From Vulcanimicrobiota bacterium (lineage in GTDB: Bacteria; Vulcanimicrobiota; Vulcanimicrobiia; Vulcanimicrobiales; Vulcanimicrobiaceae), in assembly GCA_963714015.1 (NCBI GenBank), contig OY970223.1, positions 672,001 through 736,000 on the forward strand: a stretch of 64,000 nucleotides of DNA, in the 5' to 3' direction. Of the stretch, positions 15,001 through 24,000 are shown one piece after another (position 1 is the first letter of the stretch; each line of letters opens with the position of its first letter). Made by a program: the position numbers.

Positions 15001-18000
15001 GATCGCGCGCGCTATCTCGACGCGCCGGCGCTCGCCGCCCGAGAGCGAATCGCCGCGCGCGTCGACGAATTTGAGCAGGCCGAATTCCTCGAGCAGCGGG
15101 TGAAGGCGCTCTTCCTGCTCTTCGCGCGAGACGCCGTGCATCTCCCAAATCAGACGAATGTTGTCGCCGACGGAGAGTTTGCGAAAGATCGAGTTCTCCT
15201 GCGCCAAGTACCCGATCCCGCGGCGCGAACGCATGTACATCGGCGCCGACGTAAGGTCGAAGTGCTGCGTCTCCGTATCGAGCAGCACCGTTCCGCCGTC
15301 GGGTTTGACCAGACCTACGACCATGTAAAAGGTGGTCGTCTTTCCGGCACCGTTGGGACCCAGCAAGCCGACAATCTCGCCCGTGCGCACTTCGGCACTG
15401 ACGCCGTTGACCACCGCGCGCTCGCCGTAGCGCTTGAGGAGTCCGCGCATTTGAATCTCGGGCACTACTGCATCACCATCTGCGTCAGCTTCACGTCCGA
15501 AGTGAACGTGTTTCCGGTCAGAAGTTCCTGTTGGCCGCCCTGCATGCCGGTTATTCGCACGTGTCCCTCTCCGTGAAGCATGGCGGTCGTCTGATCGTAC
15601 GTGAGCCGGTCGCACGTCAAGTGCAGACCGGTGCTCGTCGTCGCGCGAACTCCGCCGGAAAGGACCACCTTCTTGTCCCGCGCGATCGCAGCGGTCGGAG
15701 CCGCCGCCTGCAGCCGCGTACCGTCTTTGTCAAAGAACGTTACCGTCGTTTGCTGAAAATTTGCTTGGGCCAGGTTCTGAGCGGAATGGCTCTCGCAGGA
15801 CTGCGCCAGCATCTCATACGCTTTCCGGTTGCCGGACTGCTGCGTGATGCGGACGGGCCGGGCGCGCGTCCCGCGGCACCGTATGTCGAGCGGCGGCAGA
15901 CCGCTCGGACTTGCAGCCGGACCGGGCGTTCCCCCCGGCCTTCGCTGCGGCTGCGGATTGCACGCCGAGCATGCAAGGACCGCCGCGAGAGCCCAAATCA
16001 GGGTCCCCTTCATGACTCCTCTCCCAAGCCGTCATCGGCCGCCGCGAGTGCGAGCGCCATAGCGGGCATCCACAATCCGAAGATCACGATGCTCACGGTA
16101 TCGATGAGCCCTTGCACCCACGTTCCGGCAAGTCCCGCCGCGACCGCGAAAGCCAGCACGCGGCCGGTCTGCGAAGCTCCCCGCAGCCGATCGCGCAGCG
16201 TCGTCGCGAATCTCCACCACGCCGCAAGAACGGCAACCAGCCCGACGATCCCGGTTTCGGCAAAAATGGTCAGCAGAAAGCTGTGCGCGTGAAAGGCAAT
16301 CGCGTCGCCGTCGGGCAGCCGCACCAGCGGGTAGATTCGGGCAAAGTCGAACGGCCCGACGCCGGTGAGCGGAAAGCGCCGCACAATCTCCAGTCCCGCT
16401 TCCCAAATCGAAAGACGGGTGTAGTTTTCCGCCGGATTGTGGTGGGCGTTGAATACGACGAGCACTGCGGCCAGACCGGCCAGAAGGATCGCGGGAGCGA
16501 ATCGCCGCTGCACGTTCCCGCTGAGATAAGCGTAAAACGCGATTGCCGCGGCCAAACCCATCCAGCCCGCGCGAGAAAAAGTTAACACGAGGGCAGCGAG
16601 TCCGGCTGCGATCGCGATGCAGGCGATTATCCGCAGAATACGATCGCGTGCAACGCGCGCGAGCGCATATGCCAGCGGCAAGAAGACGATGAGATACCCC
16701 GCGAGCTCGCCCGGCAGAACGAACGTTCCGATCGCGCGCCCATGCCCAATGGCGTACTGATCCGCGGGAAGCCGCAACAGCACCATGACGACCGCCGCCA
16801 GCGATGCCATTGCGCCCGAAACAAGAAACGCGTAATAGATCGCGCGGCTTGCTCCGGGATATGTATAGTAGCGCAGGACGAACAAGTGCCAAATGACGCT
16901 GACCGCCGCTATTCCCAGAAACAACAGCCCGCCCGCGGGATCGAATCCCACGAGTGCCGACAATACGCCGGACGCAACCCATGCAACCAACGGGACGAGT
17001 GTCGGCGGACGCTCGACCGGCGGCCGCAGAATCATTGCTGCGAAATACGACCCGAGCAGGGCGCAAACTGCAAGCAGTGCGATGCCCGCGGTGCGCGGGA
17101 CCAGCGACACTCCGGGAACCGAAACGACGGTCAGCATGATGAACGCGGGGAAGAGCGGCACAATGAAAAACGCGAGCGCCAAGCTTGCGGGGATTAGTCG
17201 TTTCACGCGATGAGCTGCGCAATCTCGGCTGCGATCCGTTTTGCAGCACCGGGAGGTCCCATCCGTTCGCGTCCCGCGGCCGACATGGCGGCGCGCCGTT
17301 TTTCGTCCGCCAGCAGCTGTGCAACTTCCGAGGCCGCCGAGCGTTCGTCCCCGGCTACGACCAAAAGGGCCTCGCCCAGAAGACCGGCTTGCCTATGCCG
17401 GTACCACGCATGTTTGCCGCGCTCGCTGGTTGTGAACGCGATCACGGGAATGCCGGCGGCGGCGGCAGCTTCGTTTGCGGTCCCCGCCTGCCCGAGCACA
17501 GCATCCGCGCCGCGCAGCATTGCACCGATTGGGCCGCGCCAGGCGCGCAGCATTTCACGTCCGCCGGCCAGGGCGCGGAAAGGAGCGGCCGCATCGGCGA
17601 CGACTTCGAAGCCGGCCGATACCACGGCGCTAGCCATGCGATTTGCGTCCAGCCCGGGCGCGATCGAAAGCGCCGCTCCGAGCGACGGTTGCTCGCGCCC
17701 GAGCTCGCGTACGACGCGTGCGAGAAATTCTGCGGCGGCGTACGCGTCCTGGCGGCTTCCCGGGAAGAGCGCCAAATACGGCGCGAACGCATCATTGGGC
17801 GAGGGCCCTTCGTCCTGATAGAGATCGACGATCACGTTGCCGCTTCGCGCCGCTATACCGTGCCGGCGAAGGCGCTGCGCCGTCGGTTCGTCGCGCACGT
17901 ATACCACGGCCGCCTTACGGATCACGCGCTCTTCGAATGCACCGTAAGGCGCGACATACACGCTCTTTGCGGTTCCGACGAAAGCCGTGGCCGCTCGCGC

Positions 18001-21000: not shown

Positions 21001-24000
21001 AAAGCGTGGGGCCCCCACGTCCTCATGGCGCTTAAAGCTCGTACTCGACCATCGCCTCCCCGAGGGCGCCGGTGAGGTCTCTCCACGGGGGCTGCCAAGG
21101 CCTCAAGCATGCAGCACCGTCGCGTCAAAACCGAAGAGCCGCGGATCCGACGCAATTGAAAACATGAGTTCCGCCGAGACGACGAATTGATCTTCTACGC
21201 GTCCTTCGGCATGCACCCAGCCGATGTTGCGCTTGTGTTTGGTCAGGCGCACTTCCATCATGAAACGATCGCCCGGCACGACGGGGCGGCGGAATTTGCA
21301 CGCGTCGATACCGGCCAGGTACGGCGTCTTGCGAGAAAATTCGCCGGGCTCCAGGACGACGGCGCCGCCGAGCTGCGCAAGCGCTTCGATCATGTAGACG
21401 CCGGGCAGGAGCGGATTTCCCGGGAAATGCCCCGTGAATACGGGCTCGGTCGCGGTTACGTTCTTGTAACCGACGGCGCGCACGCCGGGCTCTAATTCCA
21501 CGATCCGATCGACCAGCAGAATCGGATAGCGGTGCGGCAAGATCTCCATGATCTGCCGGATGTCGAGTTCAGCCAAGGCTATTGCACTTTCGCAGCCGGC
21601 AGAGGATTTTGGCGAAGCTTGCGCAGCTCGCTCGTGGCGAGGCAGTGCAGCTTGTGACCGCTCTTGATCGCCACGATCTCGCATTGCGGATATGCGCCGA
21701 GCAGCGCGAAGTCTCCAAGCAGGTCGAGCACTTTATGGCGCACCGGCTCGTCGGGCCAGCGCAGTTCCTGCATGGGTCCTTCGGGCGCAAACACCACGGC
21801 GTTCTCGAGCGTACCGCCCTTGGCCAGCCCGCGATCCAGCAGCGCCTGCACTTCGTGCAGATATCCGAACGTGCGCGCAGCCGCTATTTCGCGCTCGAAC
21901 ACGCCGGAATCCATTTCGGCGTCAAAGTATTGCGCACCGATGGGCGGAGCAAAGTCGGCGATGAAGCGCACGCGCAAACGCGCGGCGGGAAGAATGACGA
22001 TCGCGCGGTCGCCGTCCCGCAGGAAGACCGCCGAGAGCGGGACGTACGTCTCGCGAACTTCTTTTTGCCGGACGGTGCCGGCTTCATGGATGCGATCGAC
22101 GAAGAACTTGGCGCTGCCGTCCGCGACGGGAATTTCCGGACCGTCGACGTGGATCTCGGCGTTGGCAACTCCCGTTCCGAACAGTGCGGAAAGCAGATGC
22201 TCGACCGTGGAGATAGTGACGCCGTCTTTGCCCAAGACCGTTGCGCGCGCGGTTTCGACGACGAACTCGGCCAGAGCCGGAATGTTTACGCCGCCGGAGC
22301 GAAAGACGAATCCCGAATCGGGAGCCCCGGGACGCACTTCAATGCGGCAAGCAGCGCCGCTATGCAGTCCTACGCCGTGCACTTCGAACGCGTTGCGCAG
22401 CGTGCTCTGGTACTGCGTCACCGTTCAGCGTCCGCTGTCTTTTTCTTCGAGCGCCTCGACACGGGCAACCAGCTTAGGCAGGTCTCGAAGCATGACCTCT
22501 CGTCTGAGGTCCTCCCGATGCGGCCGTGCCGGCGTGCCGCTGACGAATGCGTCGTCCGGAAGGTTGCTCCATACCCTCGCGCCCGCTGCAATTTTCACGC
22601 GAGAACCAATGGTAATGTGTCCTTTGAAGCCTGACTGGCCGCCGACCAGCACGTAGTCTCCCAGAATGGTGCTGCCCGCGAGACCCGTTTGAGCGGCCAT
22701 GCCGACGCCGCGCCCGATGCGGCAATTATGTCCGACCTGGCACAGGTTGTCGATTTTGGTGCCGTCGCCGATCTGCGTACTGCCCGTTTGCGCGCGGTCG
22801 ATGCACGTATTGGCGCCAATCTCGACGTCGTCGCCCAGCACCACGTTGCCGACTTGCGGAATCCGCTCGAACCGGCCGTCGACGAAGACGTAGCCGAACC
22901 CGTCGCTGCCAACGGTCGCGCCGGCTTGCAGAATCACCCGATCGCCGGCGACGCACTCGTCCAAGATGCGCGCGTGCGGATGAAGAATCGCATCGGCGCC
23001 TACTCGCGCGTCTTGCCCGACGTACGTCCCTGCTTCGAGTACCGTTCGGTCACCGACCACCGCACCGCGGGAGACGACGACGTGGGGCCCGATGTACACG
23101 TCCTCACCGACTTGCGCCGAAGCTTCGACGATGGCGGAAGCATCGCGATACGGACCGCACTTTCGAGGACGATCGAACTCACGCAGAAGTTCCATCAGCG
23201 CGATGCGCGCGCTGGCGACGCAGATGAGCGGCTTACGGGCGTCGGTCATGCTTTCGACGAGGGCTTCATCGACGATAATGGCGGCGGCTCGCGACTTCAG
23301 GGCTGCCTGCAGATAAGCCGGGGTCGTTGCGAACGTCAGGGTCCCCGAATCAGCCTCGTCGATAGCCGCTATACTTGCGATGCGCAGGCCGGAATCGCCG
23401 CGAACCGTTCCGCCTACCCGCCGCGCAAGATCGGCCAGCGTTCCGAGGCTCATCGGCGCTTTACGGACTGGACGAAGGCGACGGCGAGGTCTCCGTGATC
23501 CCCAGAATCTTTTCCACGTCCGGAGTGATGTCGGTTCCGCCGTATCCGATGAATTCGCGGGTCAGCACGAGCCGCAAATTCTTCTGCTGCGCGACCTTCT
23601 GGGCCGCGTCTTTGATTTGATCGACCAGCTGTTGGGAAATCTTGCCGTACTTGGCCTGCAACTGCATCGCCTGCGCACGCTTCTGCGCGGTGGACTGGTT
23701 GCCTGATTCGACGGCGCGCTCGTCGGCCATCAGTTGGTTCTGAGCATTGTTGTACTGCGGCCAATTGGCGGTCAACCGCTGAACATCCAGAAGTCCCACC
23801 GGACTCGATTGCGCAGCGCATCCGCTCAAAAGCGCGGCCGCGAGGGCGATAATCGTGCGTTGCTTTTTCACTGGTTCAAACTCTCTATGTCCTTTTCGAC
23901 GTCGTCGGTCAGGTCGATGCCGCCGCTTGCGGCGGTGACGTGGCTGAAAACTACCGTCAGACCGCGCTTTGCCGCCTCGGTGTGCGCGTCGTTTGTGATC

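Follow-up and report, generated by a model that had tools for sequence, protein, structure and literature searches.

A candidate lipid X-forming phosphoesterase in the lipid A operon of a soil Vulcanimicrobiota bacterium

We analysed a 64,000-nucleotide window from the genome of a Vulcanimicrobiota bacterium from soil, which is assembled as a single contig of 3,562,638 bp. The genome encodes LpxA, LpxC, LpxD and LpxB, and has no recognisable LpxH, LpxI, LpxK, WaaA, KdsA, KdsB or LpxL. Immediately behind lpxB lies the gene for a stand-alone metallophosphoesterase (MPE), a candidate UDP-2,3-diacylglucosamine pyrophosphatase, to which we give an even chance of forming lipid X. The full explanation that we favour, with a probability of roughly 0.52, is a four-enzyme pathway in which MPE would substitute for LpxH and an LpxB-related glycosyltransferase (GT) would glycosylate a lipid A intermediate.

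Gene organization and the lpxB frameshift

The region studied is the central part of an operon for the outer membrane and LPS, with the order tamB-bamA-skp (three copies)-lpxD-lpxC-fabZ-lpxA-lpxB-MPE-TIGR03492 GT-waaL-like-lptC-lptB-lptFG (Table 1). Residue 40 of the listed fabZ frame is where the FabZ domain starts, so the true start of the gene is probably near 21570. The waaL-like gene overlaps the GT-B gene by 4 nt, and follows it in all 70 related loci that have room for it.

Table 1. Genes of the envelope operon, in window positions
Feature	Position	Strand	Evidence and remarks
tamB-like	28734-30722	-	Pfam TamB
bamA	26003-28321	-	Pfam POTRA and Omp85
OmpH/Skp-like genes (three)	23461-23871, 23868-24440, 25164-26138	-	Pfam OmpH
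All upstream envelope genes together	23461-30722	-	
lpxD	22425-23453	-	TIGR01853 317.5 bits, cut-off 242.5; Pfam LpxD and Hexapep
lpxC	21579-22421	-	Pfam LpxC 280.8 bits; TIGR00325 229.7 bits, cut-off 187.25
fabZ	21103-21684	-	TIGR01750 170.9 bits, residues 40-176; listed ORF start overlaps lpxC
lpxA	20190-20960	-	TIGR01852 317.8 bits, cut-off 231.05
lpxB	19046-20162	-	About 371 codons; one extra base in the assembly; true stop TAG 19046-19048
MPE (UshA/5'-nucleotidase type, stand-alone)	18330-19046	-	238 aa; motif III GNRE
GT-B glycosyltransferase, LpxB-related (TIGR03492 type)	17203-18333	-	376 aa
O-antigen-ligase-like membrane protein (waaL-like)	16010-17206	-	398 aa; Pfam Wzy_C 71.2 bits
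lptC	15465-16013	-	TIGR04409 44.4 bits, cut-off 38
ABC ATPase, lptB position	14731-15615	-	Pfam ABC_tran 115.4 bits; start uncertain
lptF/G-type permease	13627-14734	-	Second frameshift near 14447-14470 splits the gene; Pfam LptF_LptG model 1-86 on ORF 13724-14734, 87-353 on ORF 13627-14469

As the preliminary description had proposed, the 610-aa 'LpxB' frame (18330-20162) is lpxB run into the MPE gene by an assembly frameshift; lpxB itself is intact, and the long frame is the product of a one-base insertion error. Pfam LpxB covers only residues 4-328 of this frame (model 2-335 of 374, 176.2 bits), residues 330-372 or so are arginine-rich and out of frame, and the genuine LpxB C terminus lies in the neighbouring frame. 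The LpxB proteins of four relatives each give two tblastn alignments, one in frame -2 that reaches down to 19170 and one in frame -3 that begins at 19168 or 19174, which places the shift at about 19168-19174. A contig from a public sequencing run, X1, that covers 19043-19224 has one letter fewer at 19168 and is otherwise identical; this read evidence is a single contig of depth 3.5 that may come from the source sample. A single frame of 372-379 aa covers the whole of LpxB in eight of nine relatives' loci, and in the ninth the frame is 442 aa long and shares their C-terminal motif. We consider it improbable that the frameshift is real and that this strain has an lpxB pseudogene or a truncated LpxB fused to MPE, as a literal reading of the assembly and comparable fusions called in a handful of other assemblies (P0316, P0317, P0319 and P0321) would suggest. 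Those calls are patchy, the pattern expected of indel errors; the extra base is missing from the X1 contig; the displaced C terminus is still 46-56% identical to those of relatives; and lptF/G, about 5 kb away, is broken by a frameshift as well.

A four-enzyme lipid A pathway

Six-frame HMM searches of the whole contig returned no match to LpxK (E ≤ 1), LpxH (TIGR01854) or LpxI, and did not recover WaaA (best score 12.9 bits) or LpxL. Neither KdsA nor KdsB, which had been checked only in a table of Pfam matches, was found by these searches: KdsB reached at most 29.6 bits (cut-off 155), and the two best matches of the KdsA model are DAHP synthases (TIGR01361, 383 and 331 bits). The E-values lie far beyond chance expectation. 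Among the 121 genomes of the phylum that were sampled, HMMs detected LpxB in 119, and LpxH and LpxI in none. The claimed absence of LpxK and WaaA holds across this sample too, with one genome each above the cut-off: a marginal LpxK match of 29.3 bits, and a WaaA match in a genome of 960 contigs with 9% contamination.

The preliminary description regarded this short pathway as new. However, a four-enzyme LpxA/C/D/B pathway with the same gene order has been published for Cyanobacteria and Dictyoglomi (Opiyo et al. 2010, PMC3087551), which also lack LpxH, LpxK, WaaA and LpxL; the pathway here thus follows a known pattern, and the Vulcanimicrobiota join the profile already described for Cyanobacteria. 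Our Synechococcus elongatus control matches the genome studied in having LpxB and TIGR03492 and lacking LpxK, WaaA, LpxH and LpxI, as the phylum does, and the agreement extends to GT9. The system studied here differs in belonging to another phylum and in an ADP-heptose locus elsewhere in the genome; the GNRE phosphoesterase gene in its operon may be a further difference. In the portion of PMC3087551 used here, no enzyme is named for the lipid X step of four-enzyme organisms.

We infer that the lipid A would be a tetra-acylated glucosamine disaccharide with neither a 4'-phosphate nor Kdo. A member of the phylum, V. alpinus, is described as having an outer membrane and the fatty acids iso-C14:0-3OH and iso-C13:0-3OH (PMC9758169). 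A canonical pathway whose highly divergent LpxK, WaaA and Kdo-synthesis genes escape the HMMs seems to us very improbable. The absences do come solely from profile searches of a genome scored as 89.6% complete, with indel errors that six-frame searches tolerate, and the LptD Pfam model is also blank here; as that model was positive only in E. coli and Caulobacter among the controls, some envelope models are evidently insensitive. Against this, seven independent families are jointly missing, both KdsA-like proteins are DAHP synthases, the profile is common to the 121 genomes, and for Synechococcus, which shares it, the published chemistry is Kdo-free (PMC3087551).

The phosphoesterase

The suggestion that a calcineurin-like phosphoesterase of about 240 aa is hidden behind lpxB proved correct. 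MPE is a separate gene that starts at GTG 19046 and has a 1-nt overlap with the lpxB stop, and its domain is hidden from Pfam by a Metallophos score of 20.6 bits, below the cut-off of 21.5. Across 13 orthologues there is no variation in the motifs D8xH10, G34D35, G65N66R67E68, H164 and G186H187xH189, which include all metal ligands. MPE shares the N-terminal metallophosphatase domain of UshA, 5'-nucleotidase, CD73 and SoxB: its AlphaFold model (pLDDT 93) best matches the N-domains of E. coli UshA/5'-nucleotidase (TM 0.82-0.86), and a PDB profile search retrieves 5'-nucleotidases (E about 1e-28). Unlike these proteins, MPE has neither the C-terminal nucleotide-binding domain nor a signal peptide, and their GNHEFD motif becomes GNREF-H, with arginine in place of the catalytic histidine of motif III. 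This change tracks protein length. Among the best 150 library representatives, GNRE occurs in all 63 short proteins (≤300 aa), whereas the 87 longer ones account for 157 instances of GNHE or GNHD, and only 4 of these proteins have GNRE; of 120 close homologues, 118 have GNREF. UshA splits UDP-sugars into UMP and sugar-1-phosphate, cleaving the same bond as the LpxH reaction.

A block-3 arginine for histidine is described as found only in LpxH, where Arg80 binds the lipid X phosphate (PMC5016852), and the substitution in LpxH is also noted in PMC3087551. MPE further resembles the LpxH of beta- and gammaproteobacteria in its complete binuclear set of motifs (DxH, GD, GNx(D/E), H and GHxH), its cytoplasmic location and its size of about 240 aa. 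It differs from LpxH in having no TIGR01854 match, no LpxH chain among its PDB sequence matches at E ≤ 1, and an UshA N-domain fold with no counterpart of the helical lid domain by which LpxH binds acyl chains; moreover, its gene lies inside the lpx operon, which lpxH does not (PMC3087551). There is a precedent in Chlamydia, where LpxH is replaced by an unrelated calcineurin-like phosphoesterase, LpxG (CT461), discovered because LpxH and LpxI are missing there (PMC4807358). LpxG carries a membrane helix at its N terminus and the motifs GDxxDR...GNHD, whereas MPE begins at the first strand and has GDSLRG...GNRE.

MPE is present in 121 of 121 phylum genomes, and representatives of 21 families of the phylum retain it within lipid A clusters. 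Among 80 named related loci, it lies directly downstream of lpxB in 71 of the 72 with room, and a TIGR03492 gene directly follows it in 72 of 72. The GT follows MPE in 23 of 24 more distant loci of the phylum, with lpxB in the locus in 17 of the first 20 of these loci; lpxB and MPE in the more distant genomes are 0.5-4 kb apart, with other genes between them. Two full-length MPE::TIGR03492 fusion proteins occur (P0135 and P0318), each on a single contig and possibly a gene-calling or indel artefact. By adjacency and fusion, MPE is tied more tightly to the TIGR03492 gene than to lpxB.

The LpxB-related glycosyltransferase

The protein encoded next to MPE, in a gene that shares its first 4 nt with the end of the MPE gene, had been described as a GT-B protein of no Pfam family. 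That is accurate, as it matches none at E ≤ 0.01, Pfam LpxB included; however, it is no orphan, scoring 218.8 bits against TIGR03492 (0.4 below the cut-off of 219.2; model 1-395 of 396), the 'lipid-A-disaccharide synthase-related protein' of NCBIfam. The family occurs in all 121 phylum genomes at E ≤ 1e-25. The protein has a GT-B fold and retrieves LpxB from the PDB only at E = 0.004. Its invariant P191-G-S-R194 and G284-T285..E288 are counterparts of P198-G199-S200-R201 and T277/E281 of LpxB, a GT19 enzyme (PMC5785501). TIGR03492 is not tied to lipid A, as the Deinococcus radiodurans control exceeds its cut-off and has no LpxB match. A third LpxB-like gene (G000:C1:756003-757220) lies within an ADP-heptose/GT9 locus and rivals the GT-B protein, for which the preliminary description had proposed the addition of the first core sugar; either of the two extra LpxB-like enzymes may attach this sugar, at the 6'-OH.

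Proposed role and alternatives

We propose that MPE, a cytoplasmic binuclear enzyme, would supply the missing UDP-2,3-diacylglucosamine pyrophosphatase step: a metal-bound hydroxide would attack the alpha-phosphate to give UMP and lipid X, with the beta-phosphate held by Arg67 of GNRE, as by Arg80 in LpxH. MPE may have been recruited from the UshA/5'-nucleotidase lineage through loss of the C-terminal domain and the His/Asp dyad, and would work closely with the GT-B enzyme, which keeps the UDP-pyrophosphate motif PGSR and most likely glycosylates a lipid A intermediate. The earlier assignment of MPE as an LpxH-type hydrolase is substantially strengthened by the GNRE motif, conserved gene order and phyletic profile; the lack of an LpxH lid and of an LpxH match counts against it.

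The strict pairing of MPE and GT in near and distant loci, the 4-nt overlap, the two fusions, the genes that intervene between lpxB and MPE in distant genomes, and a genus in which LpxB is fused to the other LpxB-like paralogue rather than to MPE also fit a two-enzyme module separate from the LpxH step. In such a module the GT might use the MPE product, or the two enzymes might act on position 1 of lipid A by trimming and glycosylating it or, given TIGR03492 in D. radiodurans, serve another glycolipid; lipid X or an unphosphorylated LpxB acceptor would then arise by another route. We regard this as possible but doubtful. The LpxH/LpxB logic is precisely that of a pyrophosphatase coupled to a UDP-dependent LpxB-like transferase, almost all of the genomes encode LpxB but offer no alternative enzyme for making lipid X, and the fusions may be artefacts. 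That MPE acts in the cytoplasm as a general phosphohydrolase of nucleotides or UDP-sugars, in the operon by chance, we judge quite unlikely: in both sequence and fold it is nearest to 5'-nucleotidases, UshA and SoxB, and it is annotated in JGI sources as a 5'-nucleotidase or 2',3'-cyclic-nucleotide phosphodiesterase, but it has lost the substrate-binding domain and the His/Asp dyad of GNHEFD, the GNRE form goes with the short architecture, and its place in lipid A clusters is constant across 21 of the phylum's families. In our preferred reading, MPE in the LpxH step, the new part is MPE itself, a testable candidate for the missing lipid X enzyme.

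The lipid A gene cluster

Pfam and NCBIfam searches show that the window encodes LpxA, LpxC, LpxD and LpxB, with the genes in the order lpxD-lpxC-fabZ-lpxA-lpxB, in a closely packed group in which every gene of interest lies on the minus strand. These calls, together with genome searches, bear out the envelope cluster named in the preliminary description. Directly after lpxB come genes for a metallophosphoesterase (MPE) and a GT-B protein, and lptC is followed downstream by an ABC ATPase that occupies the lptB position and then by an lptF/G permease; four junctions, from the MPE gene through lptC, are overlaps of 1 or 4 nt. 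Three OmpH/Skp genes, bamA and a tamB-like gene are found upstream of lpxD. The OmpH/Skp-like genes are overlapped by a 409-aa open reading frame, probably a spurious one, that matches no family. Immediately beyond the lpt genes on the downstream side, and oriented alike, lie genes for a DUF3084 protein and for a 398-aa protein that has no Pfam family. With 512 bits, an MsbA-like exporter stays below the cut-off of 602, and the Pfam model for LptD, which is uninformative and matches only 2 of 14 controls, has no match in the genome.

Features of the lipid A cluster, of the second LPS-type locus and of related loci (positions count within the window unless prefixed; G000:C1, contig of this genome; L numbers, loci cut from genomes)
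Feature	Position	Strand	Annotation
Three OmpH/Skp-like genes	23461-26138	-	In a row between bamA and lpxD
409-aa ORF	23957-25186	-	
lpxD	22425-23453	-	TIGR01853, 317.5 bits
lpxC	21579-22421	-	Pfam LpxC, 280.8 bits
fabZ	21103-21684	-	Pfam/NCBIfam
lpxA	20190-20960	-	TIGR01852, 317.8 bits
610-aa ORF (lpxB + MPE)	18330-20162	-	Pfam LpxB on residues 4-328 only
MPE gene	18330-19046	-	238 aa
376-aa ORF (GT-B protein)	17203-18333	-	TIGR03492, 218.8 bits
Wzy_C/O-antigen-ligase-like gene	16010-17206	-	Pfam/NCBIfam
lptC	15465-16013	-	Pfam/NCBIfam
lptF/G permease, frameshift-split	13627-14734	-	Pfam model 1-86 + 87-353 on overlapping ORFs
DUF3084 protein	12665-13693	-	
398-aa protein	11024-12220	-	
Third LpxB-like gene (outside window)	G000:C1:756003-757220		405 aa, no Pfam family
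Second LPS-type locus (outside window)	G000:C1:753334-761000 = L141 5335-13001		
Distant-family clusters (examples)	L031 1717-7633; L032 7001-13432; L037; L041; L133		
LpxB fused to second LpxB-like protein	L133 6306-8834	-	842 aa
LpxB-like protein fused to ICMT-like methyltransferase	L041 7651-9612; L042 7690-9660	-	653-656 aa

Missing lipid A and Kdo genes

Six-frame HMM searches of the genome, a single contig of 3,562,638 bp, gave no match at E ≤ 1 for LpxK or LpxH (TIGR01854) and none for LpxI (LpxI_C, PF06230) or the LpxL family (PF03279, which covers LpxL and LpxM together, LpxM having no model of its own); the best score for WaaA was 12.9 bits, and KdsB reached at most 29.6 bits, its cut-off being 155. 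Two matches to the KdsA model were rejected, being rather DAHP synthases of 286 and 287 aa (383 and 331 bits to TIGR01361). The same picture holds across 121 genomes sampled from its GTDB phylum (90 of them of good quality, from 21 families in all), at least part of which carry the source label Armatimonadota; the named relatives of the window are labelled Vulcanimicrobiota, Eremiobacterota or Baltobacteraceae. LpxH and LpxI occur in none of the 121, LpxK exceeds its cut-off in one (a marginal 29.3 bits) and WaaA in one, a genome of 960 contigs with 9% contamination. LpxB is present in 119 of the 121 genomes, MPE in all, and TIGR03492, the probable family of the GT-B protein, in all at E ≤ 1e-25 (above cut-off in 77). 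Controls matched as expected, and Synechococcus elongatus has the same pattern as this genome. The absence of LpxK, WaaA, LpxH and LpxI reported earlier is upheld in the genome and, near-uniformly, in the phylum sample, and we regard the gene-loss profile as very probably real.

The profile is not of a new kind. A four-enzyme route with identical gene order was already published for Cyanobacteria and Dictyoglomi, according to the available portion of PMC3087551, which also describes cyanobacterial LPS as poor in Kdo, heptose and phosphate. This genome is alike in having the LpxA/C/D/B cluster and in lacking LpxH, LpxK, WaaA and the LpxL family; for an LPS without Kdo or phosphate, the likeness here is one of genes alone, with neither KdsA nor KdsB found in the genome. 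The four-enzyme pathway of Vulcanimicrobiota is a further member of a known pattern.

An lpxB frameshift in the assembly

The 610-aa 'LpxB' consists of two genes, as was first supposed: the Pfam LpxB match stops at residue 328, and MPE has its own GTG start at 19046, preceded by AAAGGTG. Three-frame translation of 18950-19300 confirms the Arg-rich stretch as out of frame and places a typical LpxB C-terminus in the adjacent frame, ending at TAG 19046-19048. In relatives, the whole of LpxB is in one frame of 372-379 aa at eight of nine printed loci, and at the ninth the motif of the LpxB C-terminus recurs in a frame of 442 aa. Aligned to the window, the LpxB proteins of four relatives each break in two: one piece, in frame -2, extends down to 19170, and the other, in frame -3, takes over at 19168 or 19174; this switch places the frameshift at about 19168-19174. 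The only public sequencing run that contains the stretch is X1, a soil metagenome stored as contigs; runs X2 and X3 contain almost none of the words sampled. Over 19043-19224, a 181-base contig of X1 has one letter fewer at 19168 and is otherwise identical, which is supporting and not independent proof because this is a single contig of depth 3.5, possibly from the source sample. Corrected for the 1-nt insertion, lpxB is intact, and the frameshift is very probably an assembly error. Neither a programmed frameshift nor a natural fusion of LpxB with MPE is favoured, as relatives have separate genes that lie in different frames.

A second frameshift, near 14447-14470 (about 14450), divides lptF/G; it, too, is probably an indel error in the assembly. 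Several housekeeping genes in a further segment of this contig (L141; G000:C1:748000-766000) also appear truncated or fragmented, including a 274-aa piece of AspRS, a partial GH92 and an AICARFT that starts at model position 65. Frameshifts and fragmented genes together fit an indel-prone assembly and the 89.6% completeness of this one-contig genome.

A short phosphoesterase with a GNRE motif

The N terminus of MPE (MRIYHTSDLH) lies at the first strand, which begins at residue 2, and no signal peptide or membrane helix was found in the protein. Across 13 aligned orthologues (32-75% identity), D8, H10, G34-D35, G65-N66-R67-E68, H164 and G186-H187-x-H189 are invariant. Pfam Metallophos scores 20.6 bits, below its cut-off of 21.5; NCBIfam and PDB profile searches group MPE with the N-terminal domains of SoxB, UshA, CD73 and other 5'-nucleotidases (E of about 1e-22 to 1e-28), and its NCBIfam matches are of the SoxB and UshA types only. 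The AlphaFold model (pLDDT 93, pTM 0.92) is a single domain that superposes best on Bacillus subtilis YunD and the N-domain of Escherichia coli UshA (TM 0.82-0.86). MPE shares the N-terminal metallophosphatase domain with UshA-type 5'-nucleotidases but ends at residue 238, inside that domain, and lacks their C-terminal substrate-binding domain; where they have GNHEFD with its catalytic His/Asp, it has GNREFH (GNREF-H).

A profile search returned 24,174 matches at E ≤ 0.001 among 1.84 billion representatives. Among the best 150 of these, all 63 short proteins (≤300 aa) carry GNRE; the 87 longer ones have GNHE or GNHD (157 motif instances), with GNRE in four only (P0135, P0184, P0246 and P0271). 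GNREF is present in 118 of 120 close homologues, and GNRE is a mark of the short form. A scan of genome contigs gave solely Vulcanimicrobiota-type records among the best 80 of 278, cluster look-ups for 30 representatives gave 'Armatimonadota bacterium' and 'bacterium' as the only taxon-bearing names, and a metagenome scan with P0172 found a single 1350-bp locus. As leads only, look-alike clusters of MPE in the ESM Atlas come from Vulcanimicrobiota, Armatimonadota and Bacillota, and those of the GT-B protein also from Pseudomonadota and Margulisiibacteriota; tblastn with the GT-B protein found no match on plasmids.

Three enzymes are known to convert UDP-2,3-diacylglucosamine to lipid X: LpxH, LpxI and LpxG. 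To our knowledge, four-enzyme bacteria have none of these, yet they keep LpxB, whose substrate is lipid X. MPE resembles LpxH in having the metallophosphoesterase signature with the block-3 His changed to Arg, a replacement found only in LpxH according to the accessible text of Okada et al. (PMC5016852) and noted also in that of Opiyo et al. (PMC3087551); judged by the shared motif block, R67 would be equivalent to Arg80 of LpxH. MPE differs in having no TIGR01854 match, and its predicted single-domain structure has no counterpart of the helical insertion (lid) domain with which LpxH buries acyl chains. LpxG, another calcineurin-like enzyme able to replace LpxH, has an N-terminal membrane helix and DXH..GDXXDR..GNHD in the sections available of PMC4807358, whereas MPE has GDSLRG, GNRE and no helix. 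LpxI is also unlike, there being no LpxI_C domain in MPE or elsewhere in the genome.

Probable LpxB-related glycosyltransferases

The GT-B protein has no Pfam family (none at E ≤ 0.01), as noted previously, but it matches TIGR03492 end to end (model positions 1-395 of 396), 0.4 bits short of the curated cut-off of 219.2. Neither Pfam LpxB nor TIGR00215 matches it, and profile comparison with LpxB gives only E = 0.004. Its alignment keeps N9-G10-x-G12-E13, D102, P191-G-S-R194 and G284-T285..E288; the PGSR and GT..E motifs alone are common to it and LpxB, and in E. coli LpxB, PGSR and T/E contact the UDP-pyrophosphate and ribose (PMC5785501, as far as its available text goes). The structural model (pLDDT 88.6) is of generic GT-B fold, with UDP-GlcNAc 2-epimerases and GT1/GT4 enzymes as its closest structures (TM 0.5-0.63). 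Given the TIGR03492 match, the motifs and the fold, the protein is probably an active UDP-sugar transferase. An LpxB relative would be predisposed to the 6-OH of a 2,3-diacylglucosamine unit, so the 6'-OH of the disaccharide would be a natural target, and we infer from this kinship that the GT-B protein may glycosylate it. In one genus (G011, G053, G099 and G117), a six-frame search matches TIGR03492 model positions 1-263 only, and tblastn with the window protein spans residues 5-362 at one of its loci (L135 8405-9424); the C-terminal half is divergent there.

A third LpxB-like gene, elsewhere in the genome, is found in 119 of the 121 genomes, and its product is 29% identical to an in-cluster paralogue of distant genomes. 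In this genome it is flanked on one side by SIS/GmhA-like, PfkB-kinase and nucleotidyltransferase genes, and on the other by GT2, GT9 (86 bits; heptosyltransferase family) and GT2 genes and a GT9 fragment. This second LPS-type locus suggests an ADP-heptose-dependent core without Kdo, so that heptose is probably part of the core despite the absence of Kdo.

Gene order in relatives and competing readings

Among 80 named related loci, lpxB is directly upstream of the MPE gene in 71 of the 72 with room, and a TIGR03492 gene is directly downstream in 72 of 72; a Wzy_C gene comes next in 70 of 70. In distant families, TIGR03492 follows MPE in 23 of 24 loci (the exception is L042), and lpxB is within the locus in 17 of the first 20. 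The distant-family cluster consists of lpxC, fabZ, a Gfo/Idh/MocA oxidoreductase gene, lpxA, lpxB, a second LpxB-like gene, an LmtA/ICMT-like membrane methyltransferase gene (TIGR04571, 57 bits), a small gene, MPE and TIGR03492. The small gene, immediately before MPE, encodes a conserved 166-177-aa protein without a family. The oxidoreductase, beside which L037 has a DegT aminotransferase, hints at a GlcN3N backbone. Fusions also occur, of LpxB to the second LpxB-like protein and of an LpxB-like protein to the methyltransferase. Full-length MPE::TIGR03492 proteins number two (P0135 and P0318, one contig each); the remaining long forms, which are patchy, resemble artefacts of indels.

The best reading, to which we give a probability of about 0.5, is that MPE is the lipid X-forming pyrophosphatase. 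Its main rival takes MPE and the TIGR03492 enzyme, neighbours in nearly every locus, as a module acting on a different substrate, and we hold this to be unlikely. Prediction of a complex between the two proteins from separate alignments scored 0.00, which is uninformative either way. Against the GT-B protein as the first-core enzyme stand both the third LpxB-like gene and the occurrence of the TIGR03492 family in Deinococcus radiodurans, where LpxB finds no match.

Reading MPE as the pyrophosphatase allows a broader and more tentative proposal, in which the phylum (Vulcanimicrobiota and the sampled relatives labelled Armatimonadota) left the Raetz pathway after LpxD, and a UshA-derived pyrophosphatase and two LpxB-like transferases build the LPS. 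The pyrophosphatase, having gained the LpxH arginine convergently, would make lipid X; the TIGR03492 protein and the paralogue encoded by the third LpxB-like gene would stand in for LpxK and WaaA, and a hexose or heptose would be placed directly on a 4'-unphosphorylated, Kdo-free lipid A.

A literature search of main texts, covering few subscription journals, turned up nothing on TIGR03492, on the LPS chemistry of the phylum or on UshA-type phosphoesterases with GNRE within lpx clusters. For Vulcanimicrobium alpinus, the available part of PMC9758169 reports that it has an outer membrane and is rich in iso-3-hydroxy C13/C14 fatty acids, and gives no LPS chemistry. This species is a cultured member of the phylum, which puts its lipid A within reach of chemical analysis; the lipid A is predicted to be a tetra-acyl GlcN disaccharide with iso-3-OH C13/C14 chains, free of Kdo and of 4'-phosphate.

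A fourth enzyme type, from the UDP-sugar hydrolase lineage and with an LpxH-type arginine, would fill the lipid X gap, and in this role MPE would clearly exemplify convergent evolution of an active site. An unfamiliar way to begin an LPS core without Kdo is suggested by the two additional LpxB-like enzymes. If the proposal is true, the GNRE enzyme could be the long-missing lipid X step in other four-enzyme phyla, such as Cyanobacteria.
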